Assembly (NCBI GenBank): GCA_963812015.1
Contig: CAWETI010000002.1
Coordinates: 1,440,001-1,504,000, forward strand
DNA from: an uncultured delta proteobacterium
Lineage (GTDB): Bacteria; Desulfobacterota; Desulfobaccia; Desulfobaccales; 0-14-0-80-60-11
Direction: 5' to 3'
Length of the DNA stretch: 64,000 nt
Notes under the pieces: model-generated
Seen by the model: only the letters and a program-made list of their open reading frames with translations
Database searches by the model: none
Told to the model about the DNA's origin: nothing
Made by a program: the position numbers and the translations under genes
Part shown: positions 4,374-19,672 of the stretch, piece by piece
Numbering within the stretch: position 1 is the stretch's first letter
Layout of the letters: every line of letters begins with the position of its first letter

Positions 4374-4453
4374 AAAATCCCCCCTTCCCCCCTTTAGGAA
4401 AGGGGGGGGATCAGAAAGTCCCCCTTTAACAAAGGGGGATTTAGGGGGATTTT
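4374..4453. repeat. REP-like palindromic intergenic element (CCCCCTTT-nn-AAAGGGGG units), copy 1
   Basis: Two C5T3/A3G5 hairpins inside outer inverted ends AAAATCCCCC/GGGGGATTTT; the same family occurs at 6816 and 11099. Confidence 0.8.
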
Positions 4454-4550
4454 ACCATTCCCGATAAAGCCGGTGGCGACACTGCCCCATCCTTGCGGCG
4501 GGGCCAGAATTCCAATACAATCGAGAAAAACTCTGACATGAGCCTATCTT

Positions 4551-5636
4551 ATGCCTGATAGCAACCGCAAACCCACCCGGCCCATCTTTATCGGCCCGGT
4601 CCAGATCGGCGGCGGGGCCCCGGTGGTGGTGCAAAGCATGACCAACACCGACACCCGGGAAGTTGGGGCCACCCTGGCCCAGATCCAGCGCCTGGCCGCG
4701 GCGGGCTGCGAAGTGGCCCGCCTGGCCGTGCCCGATAAGGAGGCGGCCCAAGCCTTCGGGGAGATCAAGCGCGAGAGTCCGCTGCCCCTCATCGCCGACA
4801 TCCACTTCAATTACCGTCTGGCCCTGGCGTCTTTGGAGGCGGGGGCCGACGCCATCCGCATCAATCCCGGCAACCTGGGGGGGGCCGAAAAAACCCGGAT
4901 CGTGGTGGAGGCCTGCCGGGAGCGGGGCGTGCCTCTGCGCCTGGGGGTGAACGCCGGCTCCCTGGAGGCGGACCTCCTGGCCCGCTACGGCGCGCCCAGC
5001 GCCGCCGCCATGGCGGCCAGCGCCATGCGCTGGGTGAAGCAGTTCGAGGACTGGGGCTTCTTCGATTTCAAGATTTCCCTGAAATCGTCCGATGTTTTGA
5101 CGACCGTGGCGGCGTATGAGGAGTTGTCCCGCCAGACGGACTACCCCCTGCACCTGGGGGTCACAGAAGCCGGGGGCCTCATTGCCGGCACGGTGAAATC
5201 CGCCCTGGGCATCGGTATGCTGCTGGCCAAGGGCATCGGCGACACCATGCGGGTGTCCCTCACCCGTGACCCGGTGGAAGAAATCCGGGTGGCCTATGAG
5301 ATCCTCCGGGCCCTGCAGCTTAGGGAACGGGGGGTGGAACTCATCTCCTGCCCCACCTGCGGCCGCTGCCGCATCGATCTCTTCTCCCTGGCCGAGGAAG
5401 CCGAACGGCGGCTGTTGGCCGTGACCGCCCCCATCAAGGTGGCCATCATGGGCTGTGTGGTCAACGGCCCGGGGGAAGCCCGGGAGGCCGATGTGGGGAT
5501 TGCCGGGGGCGCCGGGGTGGGCCTGTTGTTCAAAAAAGGCGAAGCTGTACGCCAGGTGCCTGAGCATGACCTCCTCCGGGTCTTGCTGACGGAAGTGGCG
5601 GCCCTCACCGGCGAGGCGGTGGAACTGCCCGAGTAA
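4551..5636 (+). CDS. ispG: (E)-4-hydroxy-3-methylbut-2-enyl-diphosphate synthase
   Basis: VQSMTNTDT, IADIHF, RINPGN, PLHLGVTEAG, SCPTCGR, MGCVVNGPGEA. Confidence 0.97.
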   Translation: MPDSNRKPTRPIFIGPVQIGGGAPVVVQSMTNTDTREVGATLAQIQRLAAAGCEVARLAVPDKEAAQAFGEIKRESPLPLIADIHFNYRLALASLEAGADAIRINPGNLGGAEKTRIVVEACRERGVPLRLGVNAGSLEADLLARYGAPSAAAMAASAMRWVKQFEDWGFFDFKISLKSSDVLTTVAAYEELSRQTDYPLHLGVTEAGGLIAGTVKSALGIGMLLAKGIGDTMRVSLTRDPVEEIRVAYEILRALQLRERGVELISCPTCGRCRIDLFSLAEEAERRLLAVTAPIKVAIMGCVVNGPGEAREADVGIAGGAGVGLLFKKGEAVRQVPEHDLLRVLLTEVAALTGEAVELPE

Positions 5637-6169
5637 GGGTTAATTGACGGCCGCAGGCTTTACCATCAATCCGATTTCCCTGCCTAAGCAATACTTGGCG
5701 CATTCCCTCCCCGTTGGCGTTGTCCGCCGGGGTTGACGCCTTGACCCCCTAAAGCCCAAATTAAGCAATTTGGAAGGTGAAAACCAGGGATAGCCTGATT
5801 TACTTGAGGCTGGTTTCAAGAGAATAATCGAATTCAAGTATTCTGGAAGAGGTGGGATGAGGGCGCCGCGGGTCACAAGGACAGGAAACCCCTGAGAAAT
5901 TCCTTGACAATTCGAGTAAAAGCCCTTAACCGTAGCATATGACGTTGTGATAACGCCCGGCATTACTTGGCGATACAACAGAGTTGCACCTGTCCAACGG
6001 CTTCAGGCGGCGGGGACATCTTAACAGGTTTTGGTCTCGTTGCCTCATCACCACGATGTAGAGGCAGTGTTCCCGTCAGGTATGATTTAAACGTCATAAA
6101 CTTTATTGAGTGAACCGCGGTTGGCGCGGCAAGCAGGTTAATTCGCGAGGATCGAAAGGGGGGGCTCAG

Positions 6170-6610
6170 ATGAGGATAGTGGCCTTAATTATCGGGATTA
6201 TGTTGGTTTCAGCCGGCGTCGTGGGAGCTATTGACACGCCTAGTCGGACTGTACCCCCGGCCATGCCTGAGGTCATAGATGGTGTCCCCTATACGGGCGT
6301 CATCCAAAACAAAACCAGTTACGAGGTGTCGATCCCATCGGATAATAGCGATGCCACCCTGATTATTCCGCCACATGGGTGGATAGAGTATACCATCTGG
6401 ACCCACCAGTTTGACGTAGCAGCCTACCACAATGGCGACCCGTTTTATTGTCTGAAACTAATCGCCAATCCCCAGGCGTATACCTTCAAGTGCAAAAAAT
6501 ACGATTTCATGGCGGAGATCGTCAAACCGGAGCCGGTGCGGAAGTATAAACCCATGAAAAAGCGGCGCATTAAAAGAAAACCGAAAAGCGATGATGCAGA
6601 GTTAGGGTAG
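6170..6610 (+). CDS. Hypothetical secreted protein with a basic C-terminal tail
   Basis: ATG 6170 after a G-rich RBS; signal-peptide-like N-terminus MRIVALIIGIMLVSAGVVGA; no recognised domain. Confidence 0.6.
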   Translation: MRIVALIIGIMLVSAGVVGAIDTPSRTVPPAMPEVIDGVPYTGVIQNKTSYEVSIPSDNSDATLIIPPHGWIEYTIWTHQFDVAAYHNGDPFYCLKLIANPQAYTFKCKKYDFMAEIVKPEPVRKYKPMKKRRIKRKPKSDDAELG

Positions 6611-6815
6611 CAACGCCCGATACGCCGATTTTGTGTTGAAACTCCGAGGGGAAGCAGGCAGATTACTGGCCGGCTTTCCCTCTTGCTTTGCACCCCAGTC
6701 TTCCTTAGCCGGCTTCACGCCAAGGCGCACTCAAAGAATTGCAGAACGCGAGGTTCGGGGCGCACCTAGTGGCGTGTTTCAGAATTAAAGTAACAAGGTA
6801 AAAACCGGTCTTTTA

Positions 6816-6899
6816 CCCCCCTTTCCTAAAGGGGGGCCAGGGGGGATTTTTATAAGAGTTTGAAATCCCCCTGAATCCCCCTTTTTCAAAGGGGGACTT
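6816..6899. repeat. REP-like palindromic element, copy 2
   Basis: CCCCCCTTTCCTAAAGGGGGG...AAATCCCCCTGAATCCCCCTTTTTCAAAGGGGGACTT, between convergent genes. Confidence 0.8.
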
Positions 6900-7036
6900 A
6901 ACCTGCCAGGTCTGGTGCTCCCAGCCTGCATTTATGTCCATCTAATCATGCAACACTACACCTAGGGGTGCGCCCAAAGCGGGGGGACACGCAGGTCAGC
7001 CCCTGCAATACATTGCGGTTGGATGGCGCATCCGCC

Positions 7037-7708
7037 TCAAACCGGCCGGGTCACCGCCCGACTGAGGTTTTGCAGGATGTCCAGGTAGACCTCCGAGTAG
7101 TTCAACCTTCCCTGGCGGATGGCGTAGAAGGCATTCAGCATCAGGGACGCCACCATGAGATTGGCGAAGAGCAGTTGGGGGGCCCCGGCCGCCATAAGTT
7201 CCTCGCATGACAGGGTGGCGGGGTTCTGGTCCTGGGGGTCGGCAATCTCCGGATGATAGCGGCTCAGGGACGGGGTGAGGTCCTGGCCCCCCTGGCGCAC
7301 GTAAACCTGGACGTTGCCGTCCTCATAGTCGTTGCCCCCGGAAATGAGGGTGAGGTCGGCAAGGGAGGCGGCATGGCGGCTGACCAGGTTACGGGAGGCG
7401 TGGTTGTCCACCATCAGGAAGACCACCTCCCCCTCGCCGATCAACCGGGCCACGTTGTCCTCCGTGACATATTCCGGGGCCGCCCGGAAGGCGATGACTT
7501 CGAACTCCTGCGCCAGTTCCAGCGCCTTGACCTCGGCCTTGTTGCCCAGGCGGGAGAACGCCTGGCGGGCCGCGTTGCTGCGCTCAAAGCGGTCGCCGTC
7601 AATGAGGGTGAGACGGGCCCTGACGGCGGAATATTGCAGATAGCGGCAGAGAAAGGGGAGCAGGGCGCAGCCGATGCCGCCGATGCCGATTGCCTTGATC
7701 TCTAACAT
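7037..7708 (-). CDS. ThiF/E1-family adenylyltransferase (PRTRC-ThiF-like)
   Basis: Rossmann IGIGGIG, IDGD.FE.SN..RQ, NKAE, VDN, C-terminal LSCEE (candidate catalytic Cys) and LFAN; no MoeB-type CxxC pairs. Confidence 0.88.
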   Translation of the reverse strand: MLEIKAIGIGGIGCALLPFLCRYLQYSAVRARLTLIDGDRFERSNAARQAFSRLGNKAEVKALELAQEFEVIAFRAAPEYVTEDNVARLIGEGEVVFLMVDNHASRNLVSRHAASLADLTLISGGNDYEDGNVQVYVRQGGQDLTPSLSRYHPEIADPQDQNPATLSCEELMAAGAPQLLFANLMVASLMLNAFYAIRQGRLNYSEVYLDILQNLSRAVTRPV

Positions 7709-7792
7709 ACAGAAGCTCCTTGAGGTATGCCCGGAACCGGGGAACGACTGCTGATCGCCGGCTGAAAGGTATTGAGAAAAGTCCGGTTCGGG

Positions 7793-8455
7793 TCAAGGGC
7801 CGAACTCGATGGGCCGGGGCAGGGGAGTCACTTTCCGACCCACTTCCCCGGCCCAGTCCGCCTCAGGCGGCGTCTCCTCCCAGGGGATGGGATAGGGTGA
7901 GAACAGGTGCTCCGGGGGAATTTGCCCCCGAAACCCTTGGACCACCACGGAGCAGGACAGGGTGAGTTCGCGGTCCAGGTTGCCGATGGTAAGGTGAAAG
8001 CCGTCTTCGAAGCGTTCGTCCTGCCAATCCCTGAGGGAGTGAAACGCGTCCAACCCGGCATGGCTGTGGATGGTGCCCAGGCGGGTGAGTCCCGCCGGGA
8101 ACTCCCTGACCTCGTAATCGCAATGGCCACCCCCCACGGTCTGGTGGGGCACGACCAGTTCGTAGGTCCGGGTGGCTTCCCGCCAGGCCAACAGAACCAC
8201 GGCTTCGCTTTCGTAGCGGGTATAAACGGCCCGGAAGAAGGCCACGGCCCGGAGCAGCAGGGCGGCGGGCAGGGGAGGGGCGCTCAGGCGGATATCGGGC
8301 CCCTGGGACTCGAGCCAGGGAATGCCCGGGGCCGGGACCACAGCCTCAAAGAAGGGAGTCCGTTTCACCAGGAACAACCCATCCCGGGTGAGGAGATAAT
8401 AGATGGTGTCGGCGGGCGGGGAATAATCCCGGTCTTTCAGATAAATGGGTAACAT
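7793..8455 (-). CDS. JAB/MPN+ metallopeptidase (PRTRC protein A / Prok-JAB-like)
   Basis: Complete JAMM motif: upstream E (ESEAVV) and HSH-x7-S-x2-D (HSHAGLDAFHSLRD); N-terminal YLLTRDGLFL segment. Confidence 0.88.
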   Translation of the reverse strand: MLPIYLKDRDYSPPADTIYYLLTRDGLFLVKRTPFFEAVVPAPGIPWLESQGPDIRLSAPPLPAALLLRAVAFFRAVYTRYESEAVVLLAWREATRTYELVVPHQTVGGGHCDYEVREFPAGLTRLGTIHSHAGLDAFHSLRDWQDERFEDGFHLTIGNLDRELTLSCSVVVQGFRGQIPPEHLFSPYPIPWEETPPEADWAGEVGRKVTPLPRPIEFGP

Positions 8456-8605
8456 GCAGTTTTGGGGCAGGCTAGGGCTCTCATAAAAATTTTACCGGTT
8501 GATGGGTTTCTCCCGGGAAGTATGGCCAGTGATCGTCGTTGGGGCCATCTGCCAACCCGTGAGGTTTGCACTCCCCGACCGGCCGGAGTTTCGACCTGAA
8601 ATATT

Positions 8606-8920
8606 TCAGAAGCATGTGGGTGCGATGAACACCAGGAGCCGGATTTGCGTATGGGCCTTGAGACCGTGGGGTTCGGCCACCGGCATGATCTGGGTCTGTC
8701 CGGCCCTGGCCGGCATTGCATGGGCGCCGGTAAACTCGCCTTCCCCTTCCAGGATGAGGAGGGCGACGTCCGAGTCGGCGGGGTGGGAATGAACCGGCAA
8801 TTCCTGCCCGGGCTCAAAGTTGAAAGCCAGTACCCGCAGATTGGGAGAATCATAGAGAAGTTCCCGATAAGGCTTGTCAGCAGTGAATTTGTCCACTTTC
8901 GCCAAGTCAATGAGGTTCAT
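8606..8920 (-). CDS. Cupin domain protein
   Basis: FEPGQELPVHSHP...LILEGEGEF...PVAEPHGL; GGGAGG RBS. Confidence 0.88.
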   Translation of the reverse strand: MNLIDLAKVDKFTADKPYRELLYDSPNLRVLAFNFEPGQELPVHSHPADSDVALLILEGEGEFTGAHAMPARAGQTQIMPVAEPHGLKAHTQIRLLVFIAPTCF

Positions 8921-9141: not shown

Positions 9142-9591
9142 CTAAAACGCCTTCCTGCTATCCAGGAGCAGGGTGACGGGCCCGTCATTGATGAGACCCA
9201 CGTCCATCATCTGGCGAAAGCGACCGGTGGCCACCCTGAGGCCGAAGCCGGACATAAACTGGACCAGGTCCTCGTAGAGTTTTTCCGCCACTTCCGGGGT
9301 GGCCGCGGCGTCGAAGGAGGGGCGCCGCCCCTTGCGGCAATCACCCAGGAGGGTGAACTGGGATACCAGAAGAACTTCAGCCTTGAGGTCCAGAAGGGAA
9401 AGATGCATCAGGCGCCCGTCCCCGGCAAAAACCCGGAGGTGCGCCAGCTTTTGGGCCAGGGCGGCCACGTCACCGGGGCCGTCATCCTGGGCCACCCCCA
9501 CTAAAACCAACAGGCCCACGCCGATCCTGGCAACCTCTTCCTCATTTACCCGGACCCAGGCCTCTTTGACCCGTTGCACCACCGCCCGCAT
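9142..9591 (-). CDS. dtd: D-aminoacyl-tRNA deacylase
   Basis: MRAVVQRV, SQFTL, KGRRPSF, NDGPVT motifs. Confidence 0.96.
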   Translation of the reverse strand: MRAVVQRVKEAWVRVNEEEVARIGVGLLVLVGVAQDDGPGDVAALAQKLAHLRVFAGDGRLMHLSLLDLKAEVLLVSQFTLLGDCRKGRRPSFDAAATPEVAEKLYEDLVQFMSGFGLRVATGRFRQMMDVGLINDGPVTLLLDSRKAF

Positions 9592-9870
9592 ACCCATCCC
9601 CCCAGCGTCTCTGATGACGCTATCATAGCATCACCGGCGGGCCGATGCCAAAAGCTTATCTCGGTCACCGCCGCCCCTTGCCTATCAGCCAGGCTAAATA
9701 AACCTCAGCAATCGTGTCAAGATGGAGCAGTTTTCCCTGAAAACCCAGCCGGCCGCTATCCCCCTTGCCGGGGAAATCTTCCCGCGCCTGCGTTATAGGA
9801 TTGTGTTATCGGGTATGGGTATGATAAGTTTAACAAGCAAACCTCTAAACAGGAAATCGATCCCGGCATC

Positions 9871-10464
9871 ATGGCTTCCACCCCCGTTTCCCAGGCCAAT
9901 CTCACCATACCCAACGTCATCACCCTGGTCCGTATTATCCTGACTCCCCTCTTCATCATTTTTTTGATCCAGGGATATTATCAAAAAGCGCTGGCAGTAT
10001 TTCTGCTGGCTGGATTGAGCGACCTGGCGGACGGTCTCATCGCCCGGGTCTGGCACCAGAAATCCCGCCTGGGGAGCTACCTCGATCCCCTGGCGGACAA
10101 AATCCTCATGGCCGCCAGTTTCGTCACCTTGAGCATTTACCGGGAGATCCCTTCCTGGCTGACGGTGGTGGTTCTCAGCCGGGATGTAGCCCTGGCCCTG
10201 GGGGTGGTGATCTTTCGCCTGGCGGATATCCCTCTGGTGGTCAGGCCCTCCCTGGCGGGCAAATGGACCACCACCTTCCAGGTGAGTACGGTGTTCCTGG
10301 TGCTGGTGGGCAAGCTCTGGCCCGTTCCGCCCCTGGTATTGGTGGCCTTTTTCTGGGTGACCGGTATCCTGACCACCGTCTCCGGGATAGGCTACCTCTA
10401 TGGCGGGATCAAGATGATGAACGCGTCCCAGGGAAATGGCTCCCGGGGGGACAGCCGTGGCTGA
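9871..10464 (+). CDS. CDP-alcohol phosphatidyltransferase (PgsA-like)
   Basis: IPNVITLVR, DLADGLIAR...GSYLDPLADK signature. Confidence 0.92.
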   Translation: MASTPVSQANLTIPNVITLVRIILTPLFIIFLIQGYYQKALAVFLLAGLSDLADGLIARVWHQKSRLGSYLDPLADKILMAASFVTLSIYREIPSWLTVVVLSRDVALALGVVIFRLADIPLVVRPSLAGKWTTTFQVSTVFLVLVGKLWPVPPLVLVAFFWVTGILTTVSGIGYLYGGIKMMNASQGNGSRGDSRG

Positions 10465-17086: not shown

Positions 17087-17770
17087 ATGATGCACATCTT
17101 GGGGAGTTTGATCATGGTAATGGGGATCATGCTGTTTTTTCCGTCCGGTGGCCAGGGAGCGGAGGCGATCAAACTGCCGCCGCCGGCCAAGCAGGGGGGC
17201 ATGGCGCTGGCGATGGCGCTGGAGGCCCGGCGCACGGTGCGCCGCTTTGCGTCCCGGCCCCTGGACCTGGCCCAGATTTCCCAACTCCTGTGGAGCGCCG
17301 ACGGCCTCAGCGACGCCCAGGGCCACAGGACGTCGCCCTCCGCCGGGGCCACCTACCCCCTGGACCTTTACCTAGTGGTGGGGGAGCGGGGGGTGCCGGA
17401 TCTTCCCACCGGGATTTACCATTATCTGGTGGCGGAACATGGGCTGAGGCTCCTGGCCCCGGGTGACAGCCACGCGGCCGTGGTCCGGGCCTGCCTGCAC
17501 CAGACCTGGATGGCCGAGGCCCCGGTGATGGTGGTGATCGCCGGGGAGTACCGCCGCTGCACCAATCGGTACGGGGAGCGGGGCCTCCGTTACACCCACA
17601 TGGAATCCGGGAACGTCAGCCAGAACCTGTTCCTGGCCGCCGAGGCCCTGGGTCTGGGGGCCGGGATCGTCGGGGCCTTCGAGGATAAGGCCCTGGCCCG
17701 GGTTTTGAACCTGCCTCCGGCCCATGAGCCCCTGTTGGTCATGCCGGTGGGGTATAAGCAGGAAGGGTAA
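17087..17770 (+). CDS. SagB/ThcOx-family (nitroreductase-fold) dehydrogenase, paralogue 1
   Basis: RRTVRRF, QISQLLWSA, RTSPSAGATYP, HMESGNVSQN..L.AEALGLG; hydrophobic N-terminus. Confidence 0.88.
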   Translation: MMHILGSLIMVMGIMLFFPSGGQGAEAIKLPPPAKQGGMALAMALEARRTVRRFASRPLDLAQISQLLWSADGLSDAQGHRTSPSAGATYPLDLYLVVGERGVPDLPTGIYHYLVAEHGLRLLAPGDSHAAVVRACLHQTWMAEAPVMVVIAGEYRRCTNRYGERGLRYTHMESGNVSQNLFLAAEALGLGAGIVGAFEDKALARVLNLPPAHEPLLVMPVGYKQEG

Positions 17771-17779
17771 TAACCAAAA

Positions 17780-19672
17780 TTGAAGCTCACCGCCATCAAA
17801 TCGAGGGCCATTGGGTATCGGTTTGGATTAGGCGATGGAGTGCCACTGAAATTCACCCCATTGAAAGTCCTCAGGTCGAATGGGGGCCATGGGACTGTTG
17901 ACGATACCCCCAATCTCACCTGGATTTTCCTTCTCTTTTTTGTATCCGCTAGTTTTCTGGCGTTCTCGTCCGTCCTGTCCTCGTTCTTCTTGTCGGATGA
18001 TTTTTGCCTGATAAGTTTAATCCGGGCAAGAGGTGCCTTCGGGATGTGGACTCGGAACAGTAACTTTTTTCGCCCGATCATTAGCCTGAGTATTTTTCTC
18101 GATCATTATTTGTGGGATTTAAATCCACTGGGCTACCATTGCACCAATATCTTTCTCCATGGCTTAAACTCATTTTTGGTTTGCCAGATATTATTAATTA
18201 TAATGAATAGATCTGCGACCAACAGTAAGGAAAGGGTAATTCCATTTTTTGCAGGATTGTTGTTCTTAGTTTTGCCATGTCATGCCGAATCAGTTGCGTG
18301 GATATCAGGCCGCACTGATGTAATTGCCACATTTTTTATGTTAATAAGTTTTTATATGTATTTATATTTTAATTCATATAGCAAAAAATATTTCCTTTAC
18401 ATTTCCATTTTATCATTTATCTTGGCTTTATTGTCAAAGGAGTCAGCTATAACAATGCCTGCTATAGTATTTCTTTTAGCAGTTTATCTTTATTTGACAA
18501 GTTTAGGTAAATATAGCGATATGCGTCGATTAATATTTATCAATTCTCCATATTTTTTAATAATCCCAGTTTATTTGTTACTCAGGTATGTATCCATAGG
18601 GGCTCTCCTGGGGGAGTTCGGGCCTAACATTTTTTCACAATTGAATTTTACAATCTTCTTGGAAACCATTGGCTCACAGTGTGCCAAGATCATTTTACCC
18701 TTAACGTTATTGAAATATTTTAATAATTATTGGGGGAGTTATCATCTTTTTCTCCCGGTTTGGTATATAGTATTAATTATTTCTGCATTGATTGTTTCCA
18801 TTTTAGTGGTAATGATAATAAAAATAAATATATTTAATGTATTGTCCGATGCAGTAAAAAATGCGTTGTTGTCTGGTGTCTTGCTTTCCATGTTTATATT
18901 ATCATTAATCCCTGTTATTGGCATGCCTATCTCTTTAACTGACAGTCAGAGTGATCGCTACGCTTATCTTCCGTCAATATTTCTAATTATATTGGTTGTG
19001 TTATTTATTAAGACCGTTTTTAGAAAGAAACGCTATTCTATAGTGTTATTAACTATTATTACTTCTTTATATAGTTATGCATTGGTCCAAGCCAATGTAA
19101 ACTGGAAAATTGCCGGGACCATATCACAAGATATTGTCAATAAGTTGGTGGGATATGATAAGTGTGACCATCTTTTTGTGATTAATATTCCCGACAATCT
19201 CAACGGTGCCTATATCTTTCGCAACGGCTTGGATTACGCCATTCCCCTTTTTATGCCAGCACCTCCTTATAGCAAGTTGATAGTTGTTTCATTCCAAAAT
19301 CTTTTCAGTGAAACCGAGGATATTCGAGTAAATTGCCGCTCGGACATGATTTCGGTGGCATTCAACCATTCCTCTGCAAGCAGGACGAGCAATCCGGATT
19401 TTTGGATCAACCGCAACCTTAATGCCGACGGCAATCACCCGGCGCACATCCCCTCTGGAGGTTCTTTTCAGACCCCCCTCTATGGAATTTCCGGATTTGA
19501 ACCCACTGGCTACCAGATAAAGTTCACACACCTTGGCAACCAGGATCGGGTGGCCTATTTCACCCAAGGACGGTTAACTGATTTAAGCTGCCCGCTCTAT
19601 AGCGAGTTCAGGACCCCACCAACAGATCAAGGGCAACTTGCCCACCTGGCGGGGCTGGCAGGCCGCCGGTGA
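17780..19672 (+). CDS. GT-C-fold polytopic membrane glycosyltransferase (ArnT/PMT/TMTC-like); start uncertain
   Basis: SDDF, FRPI, PLGYH..N..LH, HAESVAWISGRTD, LLSKESA, DRYAYLPS; many TM segments; strongly AT-rich core. Confidence 0.78.
   Translation: MKLTAIKSRAIGYRFGLGDGVPLKFTPLKVLRSNGGHGTVDDTPNLTWIFLLFFVSASFLAFSSVLSSFFLSDDFCLISLIRARGAFGMWTRNSNFFRPIISLSIFLDHYLWDLNPLGYHCTNIFLHGLNSFLVCQILLIIMNRSATNSKERVIPFFAGLLFLVLPCHAESVAWISGRTDVIATFFMLISFYMYLYFNSYSKKYFLYISILSFILALLSKESAITMPAIVFLLAVYLYLTSLGKYSDMRRLIFINSPYFLIIPVYLLLRYVSIGALLGEFGPNIFSQLNFTIFLETIGSQCAKIILPLTLLKYFNNYWGSYHLFLPVWYIVLIISALIVSILVVMIIKINIFNVLSDAVKNALLSGVLLSMFILSLIPVIGMPISLTDSQSDRYAYLPSIFLIILVVLFIKTVFRKKRYSIVLLTIITSLYSYALVQANVNWKIAGTISQDIVNKLVGYDKCDHLFVINIPDNLNGAYIFRNGLDYAIPLFMPAPPYSKLIVVSFQNLFSETEDIRVNCRSDMISVAFNHSSASRTSNPDFWINRNLNADGNHPAHIPSGGSFQTPLYGISGFEPTGYQIKFTHLGNQDRVAYFTQGRLTDLSCPLYSEFRTPPTDQGQLAHLAGLAGRR

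Follow-up and report, generated by a model that had tools for sequence, protein, structure and literature searches.

The nearest described kind of system to the gene pair treated in this study is the PRTRC cassette, i.e., the type 6d operon of Iyer, Burroughs and Aravind (2006; PMC1779556). The pair consists of a JAB/JAMM metalloprotease gene and a gene for a short E1-like adenylyltransferase, and lies at 7037..8455 of a 64,000-nucleotide stretch of DNA (the window; positions 1,440,001 to 1,504,000 of contig CAWETI010000002.1, assembly GCA_963812015.1) from an uncultured member of the Desulfobaccales. According to the available part of the 2006 source, type 6d operons encode an E1, a JAB protein that has a further domain at its N-terminus, an E2-like protein in which a Cys is conserved, and a ubiquitin-like protein (Ubl) with a C-terminal Gly. 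Their hallmarks are given there as an absolutely conserved His located C-terminal to the E2 Cys, a strictly conserved Arg and Trp in the N-terminal domain of JAB, and an additional alpha-helical protein. Other bacterial systems with E1/E2/JAB-type machinery that conjugates a protein C-terminus are Bil (BilABCD) and CBASS Cap2/Cap3 (PMC10557695, PMC10097602), while Bub (PMC11601596) comprises a Ubl, an E1, an E2 and a deconjugating peptidase, and is described, in the text available, as using oxyester intermediates, a peptidase-E1 fusion without catalytic Cys, and a serine protease. In the ubiquitin/SAMP-Cdc48/proteasome axis of archaea and eukaryotes, as covered by the accessible part of PMC4895103, Ubl, E1, JAMM isopeptidase, and Cdc48/PAN-type AAA ATPase occur together in one organism.

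The first-pass annotation of the window had regarded the JAB-E1 pair as one without Ubl or E2. This is correct for the flanks of the pair and incorrect for the genome, where a Ubl, an E2-like protein, and an AAA ATPase are encoded at two other loci that co-occur with the pair across relatives. We consider it likely that the JAB-E1 locus is one of three scattered loci of a five-part Ubl system (Ubl, E1, E2-like protein, JAB, and Cdc48-like AAA ATPase), which is predicted to conjugate the Ubl to proteins. As judged from its sequences, the putative Ubl conjugation system, which has an AAA ATPase as a partner, is chromosomal, vertically inherited, and dispersed, and is a variant near PRTRC/type 6d. 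A literature search, outside of which most subscription journals lay, found no description of such a chromosomal set of AAA, E2-like, JAB, E1, and Ubl genes.

The likeness to PRTRC/type 6d covers, as far as the source text at hand goes, the stand-alone JAB with an N-terminal alpha+beta domain, the short stand-alone E1, the E2-like protein with a conserved Cys, and the small beta-grasp Ubl, in which a Gly at the C-terminus is conserved. The JAB protein has PRTRC_A (TIGR03735) as its sole NCBIfam match and the E1 has PRTRC_ThiF (TIGR03736) as its top one, yet the scores of 28.2 and 45.4 bits stay far below the respective cut-offs of 101.8 and 144.75, and the E2-like protein itself matches neither PRTRC_B nor Prok-E2_D. 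The invariant His past the E2 Cys and the invariant Arg/Trp of the JAB N-terminal domain, which are hallmarks in the available description, are both absent here; the loci read, in which no family search for ParB was made, showed neither an alpha-helical nor a ParB partner, and the cassettes read had no conserved helical partner. The pair is flanked by ispG, cupin, and dtd genes rather than by PRTRC B-F partners, its system has a Cdc48-like AAA ATPase in addition, and its context is chromosomal, vertical, and dispersed, whereas PRTRC is portrayed in the accessible text as a mobile-element cassette. The pair is thus PRTRC-like, as had been proposed for it, and is not a member of PRTRC.

The same comparison sets the pair apart from the other described systems, within what the available parts of their sources report. 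In contrast to Bil and CBASS Cap2/Cap3, the E1 lacks a fused E2, and there is no CD-NTase/effector, significant PADLOC match, or defence-island context; in contrast to Bub, the E1 and the E2-like protein keep an invariant Cys and the peptidase is of the JAMM type and encoded on its own. With respect to the archaeal and eukaryotic axis, the parts correspond, whereas the coupling of the AAA ATPase to the Ubl tag is here something that we infer from gene linkage alone.

Results

The JAB and E1 proteins

The two genes of the pair are co-oriented and 84 bp apart, with the JAB stop codon ending at 7793 and the E1 ATG at 7708:

7793..8455, minus strand: JAB/JAMM metalloprotease gene, open reading frame (ORF) of 220 amino acids (aa)
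7709..7792, minus strand: JAB-E1 spacer of 84 bp, with an AGGAG ribosome-binding site 8 nt 5' of the E1 ATG
7037..7708, minus strand: gene for a short stand-alone E1-like adenylyltransferase, ORF of 223 aa

The complete JAB motif reported for the first gene (E84 ... H130-S-H132-x7-S140-x2-D143) is conserved in all five residues among 34 family members. The protein is composed of an N-terminal alpha+beta domain of ~75 aa, the JAB core, and a C-terminal region with a conserved P-x-E-W motif. Invariant residues of the N-terminal region in the 34-sequence alignment are P14, G26, and L48, and the conserved R176 and W201 sit C-terminal to the core; the tail, ...VTPLPRPIEFGP, is specific to the lineage. 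Against Pfam Prok-JAB (PF14464) the protein scores 22.2 bits, under the cut-off of 25, which several family members exceed (26-34 bits), and in PADLOC it has no match at E <= 0.1. A HMMER scan of 1.84 billion representative proteins with JAB returned 2,258 proteins at E <= 0.001. Both JAB and E1 have many close homologues (75-95% identity) in metagenome-assembled genomes (MAGs) labelled by their sources as Desulfobaccales, Syntrophobacterales, or Thermodesulfobacteriota.

Many JAB family members carry C-terminal zinc-ribbon or RING-like extensions. Many of those with 500-600 aa (among them P0272, P0286, P0328) have C-terminal zinc-ribbon segments with weak Prok-RING_1-like matches, which the window JAB lacks; the zinc-ribbon segments of such long homologues may be built-in E3-like modules.

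The E1 is a single domain of 223 aa that matches Pfam ThiF (PF00899) with 57.3 bits, above the cut-off of 28.1, and has neither zinc CxxC pairs nor a rhodanese domain or fused E2. Its motifs are intact (GxGGxG, D37/D39, N45/R48/Q49, K57, D101/N102), and an alignment of 15 sequences shows no variation at G8/G10/G11/G13, D37, D39, R48, K57, and D101. The same holds for C168 of the SC motif, the one conserved Cys of the protein, in agreement with the lone SC motif without CxxC pairs noted at first pass. The MoeB/ThiF equivalogs give at most 42 bits (cut-offs 152-450), and PADLOC gives a weak BilD match of 24.5 bits with E1-E2 models at or below 16 bits. Sequence searches of the PDB with E1, JAB, and E2-like protein found no close solved structure: MoeB is the closest one to the E1 (46.6 bits), the JAB profile has weak MPN matches only, with BilC among them (E 0.062), and the E2-like profile has no match.

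A recurrent cassette in distant genomes

Distant loci from groups of the candidate phyla radiation (CPR), Planctomycetota, a Gammaproteobacteria MAG, a Melioribacteraceae MAG, and a Woesearchaeota MAG share a recurrent cassette. It contains an E2-like gene (240-370 aa, sometimes as 2-4 paralogues, with a weak Prok-E2_D match in two loci), a JAB gene, an E1 gene for 223-235 aa that in many cases shares a few bases with the JAB gene, and a gene for a small protein with a weak ThiS match and a G-x-K-G end. The tight JAB-E1 coupling by overlap may explain why the pair stayed adjacent after the cassette was broken up. In CPR, the cassettes are flanked by housekeeping genes (L21, MreC, PBP2, HtrA). 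The two JAB outgroups nearest to the window (loci L053 and L055, 46-47% identity) carry a 577-618-aa AAA ATPase gene directly 5' of the E2-like gene, and AAA homologues are also present within the cassettes of loci L056 and L067. In L055, a MAG of another lineage, all five genes are found in one cluster:

4391-6124: AAA ATPase gene
6128-6904: E2-like gene
6983-7657: JAB gene
7778-8713, opposite strand: pirin gene
9165-9896: E1 gene
9893-10192: Ubl gene

Variation in the cassettes was also seen. Upstream of one JAB-E1-Ubl set, E2-like paralogues number four in L056 (867-6980) and two in L067 (5026-6888). The Melioribacteraceae cassette, L074, encodes a tandem di-Ubl at 5259-5720, each unit of which ends in G-x-K-G; its surroundings contain a reverse transcriptase, a RuvB-like ATPase, and many small ORFs, and this context looks mobile.

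Ubl, E2-like and AAA genes at two further loci

Profiles made from the distant cassettes alone were searched against the genome of the window, translated in six frames (62,898 ORFs), with the default filters of hmmsearch, which very weak extra copies could escape. Each profile had a single match. Those of JAB and E1 were the window proteins (209 and 294 bits), and the canonical ThiF of the genome, a separate protein encoded on contig C3 with a ThiS-domain match ~9 kb away, was not matched by the E1 profile. Together with the low equivalog scores and the lack of CxxC pairs, this sets the window E1 apart from ordinary MoeB, ThiF, or TcdA enzymes. The two other genes found in this way are:

C3:380259-380543: Ubl gene, only match of the cassette-only Ubl profile (80 bits, E 4e-22)
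C2:415105-415962: E2-like gene, only match of the cassette-only E2-like profile (184 bits, E 1e-53)

The Ubl has 92 aa and ends in ...LAGEKG-RDAD, i.e., with a four-residue tail past Gly88. Throughout its family the G-x-K-G motif is invariant; some members stop right after it and others go on for 1-17 residues without conservation, as would be typical of a precursor trimmed to its C-terminal Gly. The predicted model is a beta-grasp fold, which Foldseek matches best to a ThiS-like protein, MoaD, SUMO, Caldiarchaeum ubiquitin, and NEDD8 (probability 1.00). Similarity to the ThiS family is weak (19.9 bits, cut-off 22.5), and the Ubl has no NCBIfam match at E <= 0.05 and no PADLOC match at E <= 0.01. 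A 251-aa gene directly upstream of the Ubl gene (hyp251) was considered as a part or target of the system and was rejected: 37 of the 41 relatives have it, those that lack the system among them, and the distant cassettes do not. Between the Ubl gene and rpoZ, the window's genome alone has a HicB-like antitoxin gene and two small ORFs (L076 6662-7813; G000:C3).

The E2-like protein has 237 aa as called, and its C125, a few residues past an N-L/V turn, is invariant in an alignment of 17 sequences in which no His is invariant anywhere. Its model (predicted local distance difference test score, pLDDT, of 80.3) was compared with 48,161 chains by VIA-align. UBC/UEV/RWD folds make up the greater part of the 40 highest-ranking rows, where the best Z is 5.1, and BubB is among the weak structural matches (Z 3.5). 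These matches are weakly consistent with an E2 fold for the modelled protein. Weak Prok-E2_D matches were found in the E2-like proteins of 2 relatives only. Directly upstream, the E2-like gene adjoins a gene for a 583-aa AAA ATPase, which matches PF00004 with 80 bits; its best NCBIfam matches are CDC48 and the proteasome-activating nucleotidase (PAN), all far under their cut-offs, and its PADLOC matches are weak ones to IetA.

All five genes are single-copy in the genome. The suggestion that the Ubl would be encoded elsewhere was hence correct, and because Ubl, E2-like, and AAA genes exist elsewhere in the genome, the earlier readings of the pair as a minimal system or as acting on an unconventional substrate become unnecessary. 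No rhodanese, cysteine desulfurase, or thi/moa/cys genes were found at any of the three loci, nor defence or mobile genes near them; the neighbours are core genes (ispG, dtd, rpoZ).

Co-occurrence, synteny and selection in relatives

A set of 41 related genomes, covering 13 genera and including family f1 and its sister family f2 (14 genomes in the latter), was searched gene by gene, with the following numbers of relatives matched:

JAB: 19 of 41
E2-like: 20 of 41
Ubl: 17 of 41
E1: 17 of 41
AAA: 18 of 41
hyp251 next to the Ubl gene, as a control: 37 of 41, with the system present or not

All five genes are restricted to four of the 13 genera (g1, g5, g6, and g8 of family f1), and none was found in the 14 genomes of f2. 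Of the f1 genomes with a completeness of 90% or more, 12 contain the whole set of five, five contain none of it (G002, G018, G019, G020, G023), and one is partial (G016); further partial sets occur in fragmented genomes that are 73-86% complete (G006, G009, G017). Empty sites were recognised at all three places, namely, I) between hyp166 and cupin, where JAB-E1 would lie, in G016 and G018; II) between the response regulator and TlpA genes, the AAA/E2-like site, in G002; and III) between hyp251 and rpoZ, the Ubl site, in G002, G016, and G018. No other evidence for joint action of the parts is as strong as this all-or-none pattern, seen at three sites apart from one another. In a sample of the phylum, JAB was present in 7 of 401 genomes.

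The JAB-E1 locus is syntenic in relatives, in the order dtd - cupin - JAB - E1 - hyp166 - ispG, and is vertical across four genera. A check of neighbourhoods in relatives, as proposed at first pass, thus yielded both the full cluster of L055 and a syntenic pair in family f1. The spacer contains insertions of ~1.2 kb in G003 and G022 and of ~11 kb in G015, and the two genes are 21 kb apart in G007, so close linkage of JAB and E1 is not required. For AAA/E2-like and Ubl, the distance is 5-12 kb in most relatives, which have them in one region with the order E2-like <- AAA <- TlpA (<- U32) / FMN reductase -> thioesterase -> hyp251 -> Ubl -> rpoZ.

Selection was assessed by pairwise Nei-Gojobori ratios of nonsynonymous to synonymous substitution (dN/dS) over eight orthologues for five genes. 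The values of JAB (0.154) and E1 (0.155) are like those of the housekeeping neighbours dtd (0.131), ispG (0.157), and cupin (0.161), and therefore the pair is not a decaying remnant. Of the earlier idea that it was left over from a larger cassette, the part that stands is that an ancestral cassette was broken up; the relaxed selection that a remnant implies is not seen.

Several features of these loci were recorded alongside. The spacer looks like a hot spot for insertions: one insertion holds a 498-aa ORF with a weak DUF483 match and another is a 1.2-kb low-GC segment with short ORFs (L021 6798-8294 in G022 and L017 6800-8000 in G003), and in G015 a 539-aa ORF without a Pfam match directly follows JAB inside the ~11-kb insertion (L013 4562-6181). 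In the window's genome, the AAA/E2-like-Ubl region is split over two large contigs between TlpA and the U32 peptidase (L076/L077; G000:C3:374-387 kb, C2:409-422 kb), either by rearrangement or by an assembly join. The cupin gene upstream of JAB was rejected as a system part, since some loci with the pair do not have it and G016 and G018 have it without the pair.

Surroundings of the pair in the window

The pair is flanked by ispG, a gene for a 166-aa secreted-looking protein (hyp166), cupin, dtd, and a CDP-alcohol transferase gene. As stated at first pass, these flanks hold no Ubl-sized or E2 gene, no mobile-element genes, and no thi/moa/cys genes; no tRNA lies near the pair, and no Rfam family scores above its gathering score nearby. 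The GC content of the pair (0.63) is similar to that of the flanks. Metatranscriptome contigs from four wetland runs, 88-99% alike, cover both genes, and one contig covers 7649-7813 and bridges the spacer. Such contigs, from which strand, level, and a single transcript are not readable and whose libraries can contain DNA, are a weak hint that the pair is expressed in relatives.

Just 3' of E1, at 6816-6910, two G/C-run hairpins (CCCCCTTTGAAAAAGGGGG and CCCCCCTTTAGGAAAGGGGGG) were observed, which may be a terminator or an element like a repetitive extragenic palindrome (REP); Rfam matches to microRNAs or small RNAs at this position are at chance level only. At ~17500-19500 of the window, the GC content falls sharply to 0.34-0.47 (genome ~0.62), and this stretch looks like a foreign insert.

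Discussion

If the five parts form one system, its course can be proposed from the established chemistry of E1, E2, and JAMM enzymes. JAB would cut the RDAD tail off the 92-aa Ubl precursor and expose Gly88, which the E1 would adenylate before carrying the Ubl as a thioester on C168. MoeB is a homodimer, and the E1 would presumably act as one in the same manner. The Ubl would then move to C125 of the E2-like protein and from there to lysines of target proteins, JAB would also reverse the conjugates, and the Cdc48/PAN-like ATPase would likely recognise or unfold the tagged proteins.

Some observations weigh against a single five-part conjugation system. The assignment of the E2-like protein is affected by its structural scores, since the VIA-align Z of 5.1 is short of the tool's clear level and Foldseek ranks an E2 first among PDB entries only at E 0.068, with none at E <= 0.001; it also has no Pfam or NCBIfam (E <= 0.05) or PADLOC (E <= 0.01) match of its own. 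AAA was found in only 4 of ~14 distant cassettes and may be accessory or an unrelated neighbour. The relatives are not independent, so that the all-or-none pattern may reflect few gain or loss events. Finally, G016 keeps an intact E1 (79% identical; G016:C158:146-814, on a small contig) where the remaining genes are missing or broken, i.e., its E2-like gene carries two stop codons and its JAB-E1 and Ubl sites are empty; this E1 may be contamination or the last surviving part.

The same five parts could instead serve immunity against phages or mobile elements, of the CBASS Cap2/Cap3, Bil, or Bub type, and have become fixed in the chromosome. That the nearest described relatives, PRTRC/type 6d, reside on integrative and conjugative elements (ICEs) and plasmids, according to the accessible portion of PMC1779556, fits this explanation, as do the patchy spread across phyla, with JAB in 7 of the 401 genomes sampled in this phylum and relatives in CPR, Planctomycetota, Gammaproteobacteria, and an archaeon, the reverse transcriptase and many small ORFs next to the distant cassette L074, and the weak IetA match of the AAA ATPase. 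We nevertheless regard it as unlikely, given that JAB, E2-like protein, and Ubl have no PADLOC match and the E1 only its weak BilD match, that the three loci lie amid core genes with no defence or mobile genes near, and that even the CPR cassettes have housekeeping flanks; synteny is vertical over four genera, with dN/dS of the housekeeping kind.

Two narrower explanations fare worse. The E1 and the small beta-grasp protein could work as a pair in sulfur carriage or biosynthesis, in the manner of ThiS/MoaD/CysO, with JAB as no more than the maturation protease, comparable with Mec+, the maturation protease of CysO. The sub-threshold ThiS match of the Ubl and the closeness of MoeB to the E1 agree with this, and pairs of JAB plus E1 in sulfur pathways are described in the available part of PMC1779556. 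It is very improbable, however, because sulfur transfer offers no role for the co-inherited E2-like protein and its invariant Cys, and the genome has its own canonical ThiF near a ThiS-domain match, which the cassette-only profile misses; the low equivalog scores of the E1 and the lack of rhodanese, cysteine desulfurase, and thi/moa/cys genes at the three loci point in the same direction. We give scarcely any credence to the pair being a self-contained two-gene module on an unconventional substrate, such as the ...PIEFG(P/T) tail of JAB itself, or a decaying remnant. There is no local Ubl or E2, and the JAB tail is conserved within the lineage with a Gly one residue from the end; this tail is unconserved beyond the lineage, whereas the G-x-K-G end of the Ubl is conserved, and the tail was rejected as an E1 substrate on that ground. 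In genomes at least 90% complete the pair never occurs without the other parts, the sole exception being the E1 of G016, and a dN/dS of ~0.15 excludes decay.

For the favoured five-part conjugation system, vertical inheritance, housekeeping-like selection, and placement among core genes suggest a role in cell physiology and not that of a mobile defence cassette. A more far-reaching proposal, which we put forward tentatively and consider less likely than not, is a chromosomal bacterial Ubl/Cdc48 pathway in which a JAMM-matured Ubl, a minimal E1, and a divergent E2 would deliver tagged proteins to a Cdc48/PAN-like unfoldase. Such a pathway would be a counterpart of the eukaryotic and archaeal ubiquitin-Cdc48/proteasome axis. 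It would have no relation to pupylation, and its genes would be scattered in a regulon-like way and not kept as a mobile cassette.

As far as the sources available to us describe them, the E1/E2/JAB/Ubl systems investigated in bacteria to date form compact operons, most of which are mobile and several of which have antiviral roles. Here, the same chemistry is predicted for a system that is inherited vertically, is under selection of the housekeeping kind, includes a Cdc48-like ATPase, and has genes that moved apart to three places in the chromosome. One practical consequence is that orphan E1/JAB pairs need a genome-wide check before they are labelled as minimal systems. The main interest of the system lies in its possible bacterial Ubl-to-unfoldase logic combined with a regulon-like dispersal of genes. 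If the parts work together, they would provide a tractable set of five proteins for asking what role Ubl tagging has in ordinary bacterial physiology, and whether tag-directed unfolding existed in bacteria outside pupylation.

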